64,000 nucleotides of DNA from Bacteroidota bacterium (GTDB lineage: Bacteria > Bacteroidota > Bacteroidia > Chitinophagales > Chitinophagaceae), in NCBI GenBank assembly GCA_040387955.1, contig JAZKCS010000002.1:506582-570581 (forward strand), in the 5' to 3' direction. Under the pieces are notes generated by a model. That model saw nothing but the letters and a program-made list of their open reading frames with translations. It had not been told where the DNA came from and did not search any database. Shown here one piece after another: positions 3,000 through 33,730 of the stretch. Position numbers and translations under genes: made by a program. Each line of letters starts with the position of its first letter. The stretch's first letter is position 1.

Positions 3000-3014
3000 T
3001 GGCACCATCATTGT
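3000..3014 (+). promoter_or_regulatory. sigma54-like -24/-12 type element TGGCACcatcaTTGT
   Basis: The GG lies 60 nt upstream of the ATG of the REC gene. It shares the extended TTGTATTTTATT with the site at 18379. Confidence 0.5.
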
Positions 3015-3432: not shown

Positions 3433-3485
3433 TTTTTTGAAAAAAAATCCCTCAATTTTTTACAAGATTTTAATTCCATTTATTA

Positions 3486-3715: not shown

Positions 3716-6409
3716 TTGATTATGGGATTAGCTAAATATAAAAGCAAAAGAAATTTCAACGAATCCCCCGAGCCAATGGGAGGCAAAGCAGATAGTGATA
3801 AACTTAGGTTTGTCATTCAAAAGCATGATGCCTCCCATTTGCATTATGATTTTAGGCTGGAAATGGAAGGTGTTTTAAAAAGTTGGGCTGTGCCTAAAGG
3901 GCCATCAACTGATCCCACCGTTAAGCGTCTTGCAATGATGGTGGAAGATCATCCATTTGATTACAGAAATTTTGAAGGAGTTATACCAAGCGGTTATGGT
4001 GCTGGTACTGTCATCGTTTGGGACGAAGGTTTTTATGAACCTGCAGAAAAAACATCAGACGATAAAAAGATGCAGGATAAAGATCTAAGAAGACAATTAC
4101 ATTCGGGTAAATTAAAGATCGTATTAAAAGGAAAAAAACTAAAAGGAGAATATGCGTTGGTGAAAGCTCACGGACGAGGAGAAAATGGATGGCTGTTATT
4201 TAAAGTGAATGATAAATATGCATCTTCAGATGATATTACAAAAAAAGAAAAATCGGTGATCTCTAAAAAGACATTGGCACAAATAGAAAAAAATCCCAGC
4301 AATATTTACGGATCAAAAAAAATAAAAGCAGATAGCTCTTCCAAAAAAAAAGAACCAGTAAAAAAAGAACCAGTAAAGAAAAAATCAGTTGAGGTTAAAA
4401 AAAAAATTACTGATTCTGAAGATCTATTGAAGTCTGCACCTACCTCAAAATTTATTACAAACCTTCAGCCTATGCTGGCTACTTTAGTTGATAAACCTTT
4501 TTCCGAAGAAGGCTGGCTGTATGAAGTAAAATGGGATGGTTATAGGGCTGTAGGATTTATCAATAAAGGAAAGATTGAATTAAAATCACGTAATGATAAA
4601 TCATTCAATGAAAAATTTTATCCTGTAACAAAGGCGTTGAAAGATTGGGGTATCAATGCAATTGTTGATGGAGAGGTAGTTGTGTTAAATGAGAATGGTG
4701 TATCGGATTTTGGTGCGTTACAAAACTGGAGAAGCGAAGCAGATGGGGAATTGTTTTATTATGTATTTGATATTATGTGGCTCGATGGTAAAGACCTTAC
4801 ACAGGTTCCTTTAAAAGATCGGAGAAAAATTCTGGAAGAACAAATTCCTGGTAACGGCATTATTAAACTTAGTCAAACATTTGAAACATCAGGCATTGAT
4901 TTTTTTGAAGCTGCAAAAAAAAATGGCTTGGAGGGAATTATTGCTAAAAATGCCAATAGTCAATATATAATAGGTAACCGTTCAAAAGAATGGCTTAAAA
5001 TAAAAGCGAATAAGAGACAGGAAATGGTGATTGGCGGTTATACAAAAAATGATGACACCAGTAAACTTTTCAGTGCTTTACTTGCCGGGGTATATGATGA
5101 TGGTAAATTAATTTATACAGGAAAAATTGGGACAGGGTTTAATGATAAAATGCAAAAAGAGATGATGGCAAAGTTCAAAAAACTTGTTATTAAACATCCC
5201 CCATTTACTGAGTTACCTGATATTAATAAACCATCACGGTTCAGGCCTAATCCCCCTCGTGCCACTGCTACATGGCTTAAACCTGTATTGGTATGCGAAG
5301 TAAGTTTCACAGAAATGACCACAGATGGTATTATGCGTCATCCTTCATTTGAAGGAATGCGAATAGATAAAAATGCAAAAGATGTTATCATGGAAAAAGT
5401 TAAGCCGGTAAAAAAAACAGTTAAGGAAGCCGATATGCTTAGTAAAAAAAAGGCGATCACCCCTACAGCAAAAAGTGAAAGAAAAACATTTTTAAATCCT
5501 ACTGATGAAACGCAGGTAAGAAAAATAAATGGACACGAATTAAAGTTTACCAATCTTAGTAAAATATATTGGCCTAAAGAAAAAATTACGAAAAGAGATC
5601 TGTTGAATTATTATTACCAGGCAGCTCCTTACATTTTACCATATCTTAAAGAGCGGCCACAATCTATGTTGCGTCATCCTAACGGTATTAATGGCGAAAG
5701 TTTTTTCTTTAAAGATATTACCGGCAAGGCGCCTGGTTGGTTAGACACATTTCTTTATCATAGCGAAGCGGACGACAGAGATAGAAATTACCTGGTAGCT
5801 AAAGACGACGCAAGTTTATTATATATGGCAAATCTTGGATGCATAGAAATGAATCCATGGCATAGCAAGGTTAAAACAGAAGACTTTCCCGATTGGTGCA
5901 TTATAGATCTTGATCCGGCAAAAAATACTTTTGACCAGGTAATTGAAGCGGCACAAGTAACGCATGAGATATTAAAAAGCATGGGCATTGATTGTTATCC
6001 AAAAACAAGCGGCTCTACAGGTATGCATGTATATATTCCTTTGGGGGCAAAATATACTTATGAGCAATCAAAAGAGTTTGCAAGAGTAATAGCAAGATTA
6101 GTACATGAAGCCTTACCAAAATTTACAAGTATTGAACGGACTGTAAAAGATCGCAAAGGAAAAATGTATATTGATTTTTTGCAGAATAGGGCACAAGCAA
6201 CTGTTTCGGCGCCATATTCTGTAAGACCCAAACCCGGCGCAACTGTATCAATGCCCCTTGATTGGAGCGAAGTAAAAAAAGGTTTAAAAATGTCCGACTT
6301 TACAATTCATAATGCTATTGAAAGAATAAAGTCTGAAGGAGATATTTTTAAACCTGTACTTGGAAAAGGGGTTAATCTAAAAAAGATCATTGCTGATATG
6401 GAAAAATAA
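3716..6409 (+). CDS. ligD: ATP-dependent DNA ligase LigD, three-domain form (3'-phosphoesterase - ligase - primase/polymerase)
   Basis: It has a PE domain (RFVIQKHDASHLHYDFRLE..WAVPKGPS), the ligase adenylation motif EVKWDGYR, and a C-terminal LigD polymerase domain (FFFKD.., YIDFLQN). The ORF-track start is TTG at 3716, and an ATG at 3722 is an alternative. Confidence 0.95.
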   Translation: MIMGLAKYKSKRNFNESPEPMGGKADSDKLRFVIQKHDASHLHYDFRLEMEGVLKSWAVPKGPSTDPTVKRLAMMVEDHPFDYRNFEGVIPSGYGAGTVIVWDEGFYEPAEKTSDDKKMQDKDLRRQLHSGKLKIVLKGKKLKGEYALVKAHGRGENGWLLFKVNDKYASSDDITKKEKSVISKKTLAQIEKNPSNIYGSKKIKADSSSKKKEPVKKEPVKKKSVEVKKKITDSEDLLKSAPTSKFITNLQPMLATLVDKPFSEEGWLYEVKWDGYRAVGFINKGKIELKSRNDKSFNEKFYPVTKALKDWGINAIVDGEVVVLNENGVSDFGALQNWRSEADGELFYYVFDIMWLDGKDLTQVPLKDRRKILEEQIPGNGIIKLSQTFETSGIDFFEAAKKNGLEGIIAKNANSQYIIGNRSKEWLKIKANKRQEMVIGGYTKNDDTSKLFSALLAGVYDDGKLIYTGKIGTGFNDKMQKEMMAKFKKLVIKHPPFTELPDINKPSRFRPNPPRATATWLKPVLVCEVSFTEMTTDGIMRHPSFEGMRIDKNAKDVIMEKVKPVKKTVKEADMLSKKKAITPTAKSERKTFLNPTDETQVRKINGHELKFTNLSKIYWPKEKITKRDLLNYYYQAAPYILPYLKERPQSMLRHPNGINGESFFFKDITGKAPGWLDTFLYHSEADDRDRNYLVAKDDASLLYMANLGCIEMNPWHSKVKTEDFPDWCIIDLDPAKNTFDQVIEAAQVTHEILKSMGIDCYPKTSGSTGMHVYIPLGAKYTYEQSKEFARVIARLVHEALPKFTSIERTVKDRKGKMYIDFLQNRAQATVSAPYSVRPKPGATVSMPLDWSEVKKGLKMSDFTIHNAIERIKSEGDIFKPVLGKGVNLKKIIADMEK

Positions 6410-6410
6410 C

Positions 6411-6590
6411 TTACTCTTTGTTCAGATAAGCGCTTACATCATCCACCGAAGTTCCTGCCACAACCACAGCATCAATTAACTTTTCTTTGCTTACATTAAA
6501 ATGAGTACACCAATAATCTAATTCCCAATCTTCATGAATATTAACCCTTTTTGCATCCTGTGGTTTGATTTCTTTTAAATTGTCGCTCAT
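6411..6590 (-). CDS. DUF3606 domain-containing protein (59 aa, below the ORF-track cutoff)
   Basis: My own translation of the minus strand gives MSDNLKEIKPQDAKRVNIHEDWELDYWCTHFNVSKEKLIDAVVVAGTSVDDVSAYLNKE. This matches the DUF3606 pattern (I..E.E..YW...F.VS...L..AV...G.S...V..YL). Confidence 0.75.
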   Translation of the reverse strand: MSDNLKEIKPQDAKRVNIHEDWELDYWCTHFNVSKEKLIDAVVVAGTSVDDVSAYLNKE

Positions 6591-13821: not shown

Positions 13822-14232
13822 TTATAATTCTCCGTTTTGTTTAATGGTCTTCCAGTACTCTTTTCCATAGCTAACAAATATTTCCTGTCCCGGTAATATA
13901 TCTTTTGTTGCTTCAATGTAGATCCTTCCATTATCATCAATAAAATCAGCATTATTGGTAATCCCCTTAATTTTTTTTAATCCTTCAGCATCGTTCGTAT
14001 ATCTGGCAAAGCTTTTTTTATAACCCAATGCATCAATCACTTTATTTCGGTTTACATAAAAAATGTAGCGATTGTCACAATGCAAAAAATTGACCTCTTT
14101 CCAGGTTCTTATCTTTCCTTTATATTCTGCTATGAATGCTCCTTTGGGAATAAATTTCTTAGTATATAAACCGAGACCAGCCTTTGGCAAAGAAGATCTT
14201 TTTATAAATAACCATTTTTCGAGTAAAGCCAT
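13822..14232 (-). CDS. SET domain-containing protein (putative protein-lysine methyltransferase)
   Basis: SET signatures are present: GLGLYTKKFIPKGAFIAEYKG, ARYTNDA (NH-like motif), and EIFVSYGKEYW. Confidence 0.85.
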   Translation of the reverse strand: MALLEKWLFIKRSSLPKAGLGLYTKKFIPKGAFIAEYKGKIRTWKEVNFLHCDNRYIFYVNRNKVIDALGYKKSFARYTNDAEGLKKIKGITNNADFIDDNGRIYIEATKDILPGQEIFVSYGKEYWKTIKQNGEL

Positions 14233-17748: not shown

Positions 17749-18225
17749 ATGAATACTACCGTAACAGAAGAATTGATTGAGGTTTTAAATGACCTTATCA
17801 AGATCAATAATGATCGTATTGAAGGATATGAAAAAGCAAGAGATGAGATCAGGGACAGAGATGTAGATCTGCAAGGCATATTTGGAAAAATGGCTGATGA
17901 TAGCAGACGCTACGTTGGCGAATTAACACAACACATTCAATCTCATGGAGGCGAAACTGCAAAGGGCACAACCGGCCTTGGTAAAATTTACAGGGCATGG
18001 ATGGATGTTAAAACAACCTTTACAGGTAAAGACAGAACTGGTGTATTGGAGTTATGTGAATATGGAGAAGATGCTGCTCAAAAAGCTTACAACGATGCAC
18101 TTTCATCTGATGCGGAAATGGATGCAGAAACCCGTCAATTGATCACTTCTCAAAAAACATTTTTAAAAGAATCACATGATATGATCAAAAGATATAGAGA
18201 TATCAGTAGATCAACATCATCTTAA
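17749..18225 (+). CDS. PA2169-family four-helix-bundle (DUF2383, ferritin-like) protein
   Basis: The segment LNDLIKINNDRIEGYEKA plus CEYGEDAAQKAY are typical of the PA2169 family. Confidence 0.85.
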   Translation: MNTTVTEELIEVLNDLIKINNDRIEGYEKARDEIRDRDVDLQGIFGKMADDSRRYVGELTQHIQSHGGETAKGTTGLGKIYRAWMDVKTTFTGKDRTGVLELCEYGEDAAQKAYNDALSSDAEMDAETRQLITSQKTFLKESHDMIKRYRDISRSTSS

Positions 18226-18248
18226 AGAAGTTTTTCCAGCAATTTAAA

Positions 18249-18278
18249 GGGAGGATCAATAATTGGTTCTCCCTTTTT
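18249..18278 (+). terminator. intrinsic terminator of the PA2169-family gene
   Basis: The stem is GGGAGGA..TTCTCCC, followed by TTTTT. Confidence 0.65.
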
Positions 18279-18378
18279 GATGAATATAATACCCATTGAA
18301 CTGTTGTGATGCTAAAACATTGAGAAAAAAAATCCCATCATTTTTAATTCTGAGTTAAATTATCAATTAATTATGCGA

Positions 18379-18393
18379 TGGCACATATTTTGT
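18379..18393 (+). promoter_or_regulatory. sigma54-like element TGGCACatattTTGT (orphan, no ORF downstream)
   Basis: This is among the best matches of the set. Its extended identity TTGTATTTTATT is shared with site 3000. Confidence 0.5.
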
Positions 18394-18404
18394 ATTTTAT
18401 TTAA

Positions 18405-18588
18405 TTCAAATTCTCGATAAAGAAAGTTCAGCGAAACAGCTTCGAGGAAATATTTAACTTTAGTTAGATAAGTAATCATAGCATATTCAAAGAACGATCT
18501 GTGTTTCCGATCTGAATAACTTCAAAGAGGAAAACACAATAGAGAATACAAAGGGGTTTTGGCATTACGCTAAAACCCTTATTTTTTC
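18405..18588 (+). ncRNA. candidate small RNA (about 180 nt) bounded by the promoter-like element and an intrinsic terminator
   Basis: There is no ATG on the + strand between 18394 and 18588, and GTG/TTG frames are 5 codons or fewer. The 5' end is inferred from -12 geometry, and the 3' end is the terminator at 18553-18588. Confidence 0.4.
18553..18588 (+). terminator. intrinsic terminator with no protein gene upstream
   Basis: The stem is GGGGTTTT-loop-AAAACCC, followed by TTATTTTTT. Confidence 0.65.
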
Positions 18589-18722
18589 AAACTCTTTTCC
18601 TTGTGTCAATTTTTCAGAATAAAATTATTTTTCCATTCTTTATTACTGAATACAGAACAACCGATAAAAATTTTCATATAAAATATTTCTATTGATAGTA
18701 AGCAAAAACAACTCCGTATTTA

Positions 18723-18737
18723 ATGGCTTAGAGTTTG
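18723..18737 (+). promoter_or_regulatory. sigma54-like element, variant TGGCTTagagtTTGT
   Basis: The GG lies 37 nt upstream of ATG 18761 (Fpg/Nei). Confidence 0.4.
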
Positions 18738-18760
18738 TTTTAAATTAGAAAAATTTAATA

Positions 18761-33065: not shown

Positions 33066-33296
33066 TTATAAAAGCTTATCGATAGCTTTTGCAAGTGCAT
33101 GATCTTTTTCTGTTACAATATCTCCGGCATCATGCGTACTTAGCCATATCTCAACTTTATTATACACGTTCGTCCATAACGGATGATGATTAGCTTTTTC
33201 CGCTTCAATGGCCACCCTTGTCATAAAAGCAAATGCTTCAGAAAAATTTTTGAATTCGATCTTTCTGTAAAGCGTATTATTTTCTTCGGTCCACAT
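33066..33296 (-). CDS. phhB: 4a-hydroxytetrahydrobiopterin (pterin-4-alpha-carbinolamine) dehydratase
   Basis: The signature reads [36 protein letters not shown]. Confidence 0.85.
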
Positions 33297-33298
33297 CG

Positions 33299-33730
33299 TT
33301 ATAAAATTAAATGTTGTTTATGTTTGATCTGCTCGTTGGTCATCTCTACAACGAGTTGTACTCCAGGCAATGACTTAATAGATTGCAACAAAGGTGCCAA
33401 CTCTCCATGATCAAAATCTCCCTTAATCAGCCACAAAAAATCCAGGTGTTTGAATTCGGGCAGGAGGTATTCACCGTCAAACTGGTTATTATATAAATAG
33501 TGTGTAAGGGCTACAGAAGTAAGATTGTATTCATAAACTGAAAAAAAATAGGTCCGTTTTTTTTTAGTAAGCTGAATTTCCAGTTCATTATTTATCCTGA
33601 AATTAAACCCCAGCATATTGTTCAGGTGCCAGCAAAGCAAATAATCCTTTACAGGCGCTACAATACCTAATAATACAGATTCTTCAAAGAATTCCTCTGC
33701 CAGTGCGTCGTTGTCTATTTTTAATTTCAT
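33299..33730 (-). CDS. IPExxxVDY-family protein (Bacteroidota-specific, unknown function)
   Basis: [25 protein letters not shown] and [13 protein letters not shown] correspond to the family's named motif. I take the start at MKLKIDN. Confidence 0.55.

Follow-up and report, generated by a model that had tools for sequence, protein, structure and literature searches.

Within a stretch of 64,000 nucleotides from a Chitinophagaceae-like bacterium of the phylum Bacteroidota (contig JAZKCS010000002.1, positions 506,582 to 570,581; hereafter the window), the unit at positions 18379-18588 is on balance best regarded as an independent stress-regulon gene for a structured non-coding RNA of ~185 nt, which probably stems from the thiamine pyrophosphate (TPP) riboswitch family and is now probably ligand-blind. 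The preliminary description of the window had presented this unit as a promoter and a terminator without an open reading frame (ORF), forming a candidate small RNA of a stress regulon that is neither leader nor trailer of a neighbouring gene. That view is strengthened by four other Chitinophagaceae-like lineages in which promoter, body and terminator recur without a conserved ORF; TPP-riboswitch ancestry of the family, which is probable, goes beyond it. One of these relatives, at the locus designated L085, is recognized by Rfam as a TPP riboswitch. The unit is located in the largest ORF-free gap of the window, as originally stated (18226-18760, 535 bp, vs 288 bp for the runner-up), and together with its neighbours comprises the following elements, all on the plus strand.

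Stop at 18225, plus strand: DUF2383/PA2169 gene, the upstream neighbour of the unit.
18246-18279, plus strand: terminator of the DUF2383/PA2169 gene, an inverted repeat that forms a hairpin of -17.9 kcal/mol, followed by TTTTT.
18379-18394, plus strand: promoter-like motif of the regulon, TGGCACATATTTTGTA, the GG (18380-81) and G (18392) of which have a spacing of the -24/-12 type.
18404-18588, plus strand: predicted RNA of ~185 nt, with its 5' end placed from promoter geometry and its 3' end from the U-tail.
18410-18415, plus strand: 5' arm of helix P1 (AUUCUC), pairing with 18542-18547 in the minimum-free-energy fold.
18421-18500, plus strand: left arm, a long irregular hairpin at the place of P2/P3 in the TPP aptamer, in which the TPP boxes are gone.
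18501-18537, plus strand: right arm, a P4/P5-like hairpin that holds the putative THI-box remnant GAUCUGAAUAACUUCAAAGAGGAA at 18509-18532.
18542-18547, plus strand: 3' arm of P1 (GAGAAU), which ends 4 nt 5' of the terminator stem.
18552-18588, plus strand: intrinsic terminator AGGGGUUUUGGC-AUUAC-GCUAAAACCCUU with U-tail, identified by a terminator scan.
18724-18738, plus strand: motif copy that belongs to the Fpg/Nei gene itself (TGGCTTAGAGTTTGT), 37 nt 5' of the ATG (gene start 18761).

Both ends of the unit are as first reported. The motif TGGCACATATTTTGTATTTTATT begins at 18379, and its 12-nt extension TTGTATTTTATT is also present in the site TGGCACCATCATTGTATTTTATT at position 3000, in front of the REC gene. 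The strong terminator, initially placed at 18553-18588, occupies 18552-18588; its hairpin (18552-18580) contains 12 pairs, five of which are G-C, and a loop of 5 nt, and is followed by ATTTTTTCAA. Terminator-like sites in 3 kb (one observed vs 1.7 expected) are by themselves not above chance, and the unit is judged real because it is conserved in other organisms, not because of the hairpin count.

The family is known from five distinct sequences, those of the window and of the loci L122, L065, L085 and L088, and from a cut copy in a second Agriterribacter (L061). BLAST and nhmmer comparisons of the gap with 80 DUF2383 loci showed no alignable body and a single lead, the terminator of L065 (an Agriterribacter metagenome-assembled genome, MAG), which was found by BLAST. 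L122, L085 and L088 were obtained from a metagenome scan with the hairpin pattern GGGTTTTGG-N2-8-GCTAAAACCC, which returned at least 80 stretches, mostly unrelated, and three with the anatomy of the unit; L061 was detected by nhmmer. The terminator core GGGTTTTGG...GCTAAAACCC is identical in all five sequences, and the window shows the family terminator GGGUUUUGG-loop-GCUAAAACCC with U-tail. The distance from the motif to the terminator stem is 173 nt in the window, 164 nt in L122, 117 nt in L065, 121 nt in L085 and 112 nt in L088. All units are situated among orthologues of the DUF2383, SDR, Ku and LigD stress genes, with varying immediate neighbours. L122 is a close, syntenic homologue in which the DUF2383 gene, its terminator and the unit follow each other, and the L122-type unit is identical in three samples. 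The L085 unit lies directly 3' of an SDR gene, and the units of L065 and L088 are divergent from ku; in L065, cGGCATATTTTTTGG is followed by ~115 nt free of ORFs and by the near-identical terminator AAAAGGGTTTTGGTAAACGCTAAAACCCTTTTT. A covariance model (R1), for which only L065, L085 and L088 were used, detects the window unit with 38.5 bits (E 4.7e-6), a score that comes largely from the terminator, and L122 with E 2.8e-7; a search of 753 kb with R1 gave no convincing match beyond these two. A relaxed hairpin search and a search with a promoter, terminator and P1 descriptor yielded no new members in all loci, L054 and L055 being two false leads. The unit is absent from five Ku loci (L161-L165) and four further DUF2383 loci (L169-L172), and the order DUF2383-gap-Fpg is not conserved among the 80 genome loci. 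An interpretation of the unit as a repeat or mobile element was rejected, as there is no second copy in the window.

The plus strand of 18403-18590 has a fold z-score of -5.0 relative to dinucleotide shuffles. Its minimum-free-energy fold is a three-way junction, in which P1 encloses two arms and the terminator follows 4 nt after P1, and L122 adopts the same topology. A P1-type helix is present in all five lineages; it joins a segment at 24-38 nt from the T in front of the promoter GG to one that lies 2-5 nt short of the terminator. The arms of this helix differ in sequence (AUUCUC/GAGAAU in the window, UUCUUCUU/AAGAGGAA in L122, AACCUUU/AAGGGUU in L065, CUCUUUUC/GAAAAGAG in L085 and UUCCCUU/AAGGGAG in L088). 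It comprises 6-8 contiguous pairs, or 11 with one mismatch in L065, and the combined Fisher P is 6e-4. Between the window and L122 none of the 39 predicted pairs is broken and three are compensatory, with slid controls giving 0; two of the three lie in the left arm, and the stem of the right arm carries a compensatory change from G-C to A-U. Because this comparison involves two sequences and a structure derived from both, the pair conservation is supportive rather than conclusive. Of the conservation and covariation originally proposed as a check, conservation is thus borne out by four other lineages, and covariation, with three compensatory pairs relative to L122, is supportive only.

The ancestry of the family is revealed by L085, the unit of which (L085 224-380, minus strand) matches the TPP riboswitch family RF00059 with 56.0 bits, above the gathering cut-off of 54.3 bits (E 1e-8). 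It contains the boxes GGGGUG, CUGAGA, ACCC and ACCUGAUCUGGAUAAUACCAGCGAAGGGAA, and its P1 is the P1 of the riboswitch. The promoter TGGCACGCTTTTGGCA is found 12 nt past the SDR stop codon, a convergent DUF6970 gene lies beyond the terminator, and no thiamine gene is present within the 3.5 kb at hand. The 5' arm of P1 and the 5' half of the terminator can form an antiterminator of -13.1 kcal/mol, matched by none of 300 shuffles, an arrangement that is the classical OFF-switch design. An antiterminator alternative is likewise present in L065 (P 0.02). L065 and L088 do not match the Rfam TPP model and have both lost CUGAGA. With the terminator removed, the bodies show z-scores of 7.2 for L085-L065 and 6.3 for L065-L088, from which L065 and L088 appear to be clearly related, degenerate relatives of the L085 aptamer.

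By the tests applied here the window copy falls outside RF00059, failing in score, in the pyrimidine-sensor boxes and in gene context. In 18404-18551, GGGGUG and ACCC (P2) and CUGAGA, or close variants of these, do not occur in the required order, and the downstream gene encodes Fpg/Nei and not a protein of thiamine biosynthesis or transport. The topology of the TPP riboswitch is present, with a three-way junction closed by P1 and the platform directly 3' of P1. At the position of the P4/P5 signature ACCUGAUCUGGAUAAUGCCAGCG(U/A)AGGGA the window reads CCGAUCUGAAUAACUUCAAAGAGGAA, which is identical to L085 at 14 of 20 positions in an ungapped comparison and in which GCG is replaced by AAG. The helix P5 is retained through an exchange of G-C for A-U, and the right-arm sequence GAUCUGAAUAACUUCAAAGAGGAA can be aligned with GAUCUGGAUAAUACCAGCGAAGGGAA in the TPP aptamer of L085. 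That the window copy descends from a TPP riboswitch is probable, not proven.

The promoter places the unit in a regulon. Exact matches to TGGCAC-N5-TTG occur four times in the window vs 0.48 expected, a number that none of 100 shuffles reaches, and seven of the ten matches to GGCAY-N5-TTG fall in the non-coding fraction (12%) or just 5' of a start codon. The latter precede the genes for YkuD, REC, LigD, a TonB receptor and a 116-aa protein, as well as the unit. The region ~600-22500 of the window, which is AT-rich (G+C about 34%), constitutes an island of stress and non-homologous end-joining (NHEJ) genes, including those for a YkuD L,D-transpeptidase, a stand-alone REC protein, LigD, DUF2383, Fpg/Nei, DUF6496, a DAO-Rieske oxidoreductase and CinA and a Ku-SDR operon, most of which have a GGCAY-N5-T-rich motif upstream. 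The island also contains a bacterial SET-domain gene (13822-14232, minus strand), and a SET-domain gene is found at 6090-6500 of the unrelated contig L163, 1.3 kb from ku. Among DUF2383 orthologues (loci L001-L080), ~65 of 71 carry TGG[C/T/A]A[C/T]-R-N-TTTTT(A) 37-90 nt 5' of the ATG, with a sharp minimum distance of 37 nt. The motif-bearing orthologues belong to Chitinophagaceae, Dyadobacter, Chryseolinea and others, and the motif has the appearance of a phylum-wide promoter-like signal.

In the units of all five lineages, GGCAY-N5-T[T/G]G is located at the equivalent place. Like -24/-12 promoters, the motif has its information concentrated in a single block of 16 nt, and sigma-54 recognition was assessed by GG at -24 and GC at -12, 10 nt apart (TGGCACG-N4-TTGCW). 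The L085 motif TGGCACGCTTTTGGCA differs from this consensus by one base and has the GC. P1 of the L085 aptamer sets the transcription start at no more than ~31 nt past the T preceding the promoter GG, and the P1 positions point to a start ~25 nt after GG, which agrees with a -24/-12 geometry and rules out a -35-type reading for the units. A -35 element of an extracytoplasmic function (ECF) sigma factor, of the type of GGAAC-TTTT-like variants, was accordingly rejected for the units, as transcription would start inside or after P1, including the aptamer P1 of L085; for other genes of the regulon such an element is not formally excluded. The sigma-54 label of the unit promoter is nevertheless tentative, because the -12 part of the relatives is mostly T-rich and the GG spacing varies. 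In Flavobacterium, genes of the heat-shock and envelope-stress responses are driven by sigma-54, which in Bacteroidota is enriched on genes of this kind (PMC9723704, PMC12316311). The 64-kb window encodes neither rpoN nor a PF00158 protein.

Two further sequence elements were noted in connection with the promoter. The sequence TGGCACCTTTGTTGCA at 33386-33401 (minus strand) is a perfect sigma-54 consensus with TTGCA, which is absent from the stress motif. It is located within the 3' end of a 162-aa ORF and ~90 nt 5' of a 76-aa ORF (33066-33296, minus strand) that by eye resembles pterin-4a-carbinolamine dehydratase, and it suggests that the genome has canonical sigma-54 promoters separate from the T-rich stress motif. 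An A-tract/T-tract element, GAGAAAAAAAATCCCATCATTTTT, is found at 18322-18345, ~47 nt 5' of the GG of the unit, with a near-copy, GAAAAAAAATCCCTCAATTTTTT, at about 3455-3478, which precedes the LigD promoter by ~39 nt. In L122, CTGAGAAAAAAATAC occurs at a similar position. The element may serve as a bend or as a site for an activator.

A number of observations weigh against a TPP-derived small RNA under a -24/-12 promoter. Rfam, which had been proposed as a check, returned no TPP match for the window at the gathering cut-off or, in 581 nt as well as in 201 nt, at E <= 10, nor a match to 6S, Y-RNA-like or Pedo-repair RNAs. Without their terminators the bodies of the window and L122 are not significantly similar to those of L085, L065 and L088 (z <= 1.3, unrestricted comparison). 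A body-only model (R2), which is weak in that its RNAalifold consensus has only five pairs, ranks the window unit fourth on 69 kb with E 0.92. The hairpin core GGGTTTTGGC...GCTAAAACCC also ends unrelated genes in L087 (a tRNA-like sequence, by eye tRNA-Leu), L104, L081/L103/L105/L114 and L140. By itself, the hairpin sequence thus does not identify a family member, and the case for deriving the window copy from a TPP aptamer is built on shared promoter, context and topology and on the 14/20 THI-box remnant. Most of the Ku and DUF2383 loci examined have no unit, so that the distribution of the family is patchy; its members are few, which makes covariation statistics weak, and the P1 test reaches significance for only two lineages when each is taken singly. 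With respect to the promoter, the window unit (TGGCAC-A-TATT-TTGT-A) keeps GG and the G at -13 and has T in place of C at -12, while the motif of the DUF2383 orthologues (TGGCAY-RN-TTTTT), with variable spacing and a T-tract for TTGC, is atypical for sigma-54. Target prediction, another check that had been suggested, gave no signal in a duplex search against the 56 translation-initiation regions of the window (-29.9 vs -33.0 +/- 3.3 kcal/mol for shuffles), a window of 64 kb being too small to support target prediction.

The lack of significant body similarity, the rank obtained with R2, the absence of an Rfam TPP match and the generic use of the hairpin would all suit a new stress-induced small RNA that has no riboswitch in its descent. 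The family would then be a promoter/terminator cassette with recombined, unrelated bodies, and the likeness to a THI box would be due to chance. This explanation deserves to be taken seriously, but is considered distinctly less probable than TPP descent. It does not account for the shared three-way topology with P1 abutting the terminator, nor for the position of the best local R2 match, which coincides precisely with the right arm (15.3 bits; E 0.003 within the unit). In addition, L065 and L088 are graded intermediates, undetectable by Rfam yet clearly related to L085.

The structure of the gap indicates that the unit is separate from both flanking genes. The upstream gene was stated to have its own terminator at 18249-18278, and indeed a hairpin with T5 is located at 18246-18279, which keeps the DUF2383/PA2169 transcript apart from the unit; in L122 the DUF2383 gene also has its own terminator before the unit. 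The motif ascribed to the Fpg/Nei gene at 18723 is present at 18724 as a weaker copy, with GGCTT in place of GGCAC. The downstream genes differ by lineage, encoding Fpg in the window, a GSDH-like protein in L122, a 170-aa protein in L088 and the convergent DUF6970 in L085. Those that are co-directional (window, L122 and L088) possess their own motif 37-40 nt before the ATG. As the flanking genes have their own promoter copies, the unit would be an independent transcription unit, and the conclusion that it is neither leader nor trailer of a neighbour is supported by the arrangement of these signals.

A cis-acting role was weighed in the light of the same arrangement, i.e., a conditional terminator, with an altered or unknown ligand, that governs read-through from the strong promoter at 18379 into fpg/nei beside the weak promoter of that gene. 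The descent from a riboswitch with a terminator platform, the antiterminator alternatives kept in L085 and L065 and the weak motif copy of Fpg (GGCTT) are consistent with such a role, as is the L122 gene that begins 40 nt past the terminator. A 24-nt inverted repeat (18511-18534/18595-18618, 71% complementary), which flanks the terminator on both sides and lets the THI-box remnant pair with the stretch immediately 3' of the U-tail, points in the same direction. However, the repeat is not conserved in L122, and an antiterminator is not significant in either the window (P 0.09) or L122. Moreover, the downstream gene is a different one in every lineage and convergent in L085, the co-directional genes have motifs at the standard distance of 37-40 nt, and Fpg orthologues elsewhere do without the unit, as in L173, where the motif TGGCGCAGCATTTGG is present and the unit is absent. 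Control of fpg/nei in cis is accordingly regarded as unlikely. A small RNA is the likely function of the unit as judged from these features, with a residual cis or ligand-linked role as the alternative.

The comparison with L122 bears on the question of whether the unit is functional at all. No close relative of the window genome was found in the collections searched; the top identities are 68-69% for DUF2383 and Fpg (Ferruginibacter and Sediminibacterium MAGs) and 86% for Ku. Window and L122 share ~75-80% identity over the unit, which includes a near-invariant 38-nt block that contains the right arm and differs at one purine (R) position, whereas the intergenic DNA on either side can hardly be aligned and the proteins encoded nearby share only 68-75% identity. 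The heptamer CGAUCUG occurs twice within 18496-18514, 12 nt apart (AACGAUCUGUGUUUCCGAUCUGAAU), and this duplication is kept in L122. A decaying, functionless pseudo-riboswitch left behind after the loss of thiamine genes would agree with the loss of the TPP boxes in four of the five lineages, the absence of a thiamine gene nearby and the patchy distribution. Such a relic is nonetheless quite improbable in view of the conservation of the unit relative to its surroundings, of paired positions that change only compensatorily and of a promoter and a terminator that have been kept in all lineages.

A small protein with a non-canonical start, or a minus-strand gene (a 38-codon ATG ORF is present at 18479-18363), is barely credible. 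As initially claimed, the plus strand of 18379-18588 contains no ATG between motif and terminator, and its GTG/TTG frames extend over 4 codons (given earlier as 5 or fewer). No ORF is common to the five lineages, gene callers report no gene in the L122-type gap of L166-L168, and the alignment of the window with L122 contains indels of 1, 2, 3 and 4 nt without a codon-like substitution pattern. These indels and the lack of a shared ORF argue against coding, and the small-protein reading, which had been named as a possible refutation of a small RNA, was rejected.

A mechanism for the stress-regulon small RNA can be proposed from these features. The -24/-12-type promoter (TGGCAC-N5-TTGT), which is common to the adjacent stress/NHEJ genes, would start transcription near 18404. 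The RNA would fold into a three-way junction shut by the 5'-3' helix P1, and the strong intrinsic terminator 4 nt later would end the transcript. This small family of Chitinophagaceae-like bacteria would go back to a TPP riboswitch whose expression platform was a terminator, and the window copy would since have lost the TPP contacts (GGGGUG, CUGAGA and ACCC gone, GCG changed to AAG) and a convincing antiterminator. As the TPP contacts are gone and no significant antiterminator is present, termination of the window RNA is probably constitutive, and the transcript, shut by its 5'-3' helix, would build up as a stable, stress-induced small RNA. The loops of the right arm, invariant with L122 but for one R in 38 nt, may act in trans by base pairing or protein binding.

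More tentatively, the units might record the passage of a riboswitch to a free-standing regulatory RNA with intermediates still alive. L085 would represent the intact aptamer, L065 and L088 its part-degenerate forms, and the window and L122 fully ligand-blind descendants in which the former THI-box loops are re-used as a seed or a protein site. Through L085 the state of the thiamine cofactor may be linked to the stress/NHEJ regulon, for instance if the ligand controls read-through antisense to the convergent gene or sets the length of a trans-acting RNA.

Taken as a whole, the sequence comparisons suggest that the unit belongs to a conserved, Rfam-negative family of stress-regulon small RNAs, with an intact orphan TPP aptamer at one end of its range and ligand-blind descendants at the other. 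The unit links a conserved non-coding RNA to a stress and DNA end-joining set that includes Ku, LigD, DUF2383, SDR and Fpg. If its interpretation is correct, it would provide the first case in which a riboswitch of the TPP class was exapted into a small RNA, and the first small RNA assigned to a -24/-12 stress regulon of Bacteroidota with Ku and LigD among its genes. The family would be a rare case of a cis-acting metabolite sensor freed from its gene and re-used, and it carries the lesson for annotation that Rfam-negative orphan RNAs can be riboswitch descendants. To our knowledge, very few small RNAs of Bacteroidota are known outside Bacteroides and Flavobacterium, and none in Chitinophagaceae.

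Among known RNAs the closest counterpart is the TPP riboswitch (RF00059). L085 scores above the gathering cut-off of this family and has every hallmark box, and the RNA of the window shares its topology, with a P1-closed junction of two arms followed by a terminator, and has a THI-box-like GAUCUGAAUAAC...GGAA in its right arm. In contrast to the riboswitch, the window lacks GGGGUG, CUGAGA and ACCC, has AAG for the GCG that contacts the pyrophosphate, and combines a stress-regulon promoter with a next gene that has its own promoter, without a thiamine gene. The hydroxymethylpyrimidine pyrophosphate (HMP-PP) riboswitch, or thiS motif, is a truncated derivative of the TPP aptamer that precedes thiS and keeps the pyrimidine-sensing part. 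It resembles the present family as an RNA class that has arisen from the TPP aptamer by partial loss and is joined to a terminator, but in the present units the pyrimidine-sensor arm appears to be replaced and no thiamine gene is present.

Riboswitches that give rise to separate transcripts are known for other ligands. SreA and SreB of Listeria are reportedly S-adenosylmethionine (SAM) riboswitches that act in trans, still within mRNA leaders, and EutX/Rli55 and AspocR are non-coding RNAs under the control of B12 riboswitches. As in these systems, an aptamer and a terminator here would make up a discrete small transcript with a function that would not be tied to the adjacent coding gene. Unlike them, since they bind their ligands, most members of the present family seem to be pocket-less orphan units. 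We know of no trans-acting RNA derived from a riboswitch of the TPP class.

With regard to promoter and regulation, the unit is comparable to the sigma-54-dependent small RNAs Qrr1-4 of Vibrio, GlmY/GlmZ of enterobacteria and NrsZ of Pseudomonas, which likewise combine a -24/-12-type promoter, a short non-coding RNA, an intrinsic terminator and co-regulation with stress or signalling genes, sigma-54 being suggested here by the motif. It differs from them in having no homology of sequence or structure and in belonging to the phylum Bacteroidota, members of which are generally without Hfq. In its presumed mode of action the unit comes nearest to these RNAs and to riboswitch-derived trans-acting RNAs such as SreA/SreB and EutX/Rli55, although it is homologous to none of them. 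Within Bacteroidetes, the guide RNAs of the dCas12f-sigmaE systems (85-105 nt, with a 3' guide and located directly 3' of dcas12f; PMC13472631) are similarly abundant, orphan-looking intergenic non-coding RNAs tied to alternative promoter recognition. Assignment of the unit to this class was rejected, as no dcas12f gene is found near any family member and the RNA ends in a terminator hairpin.

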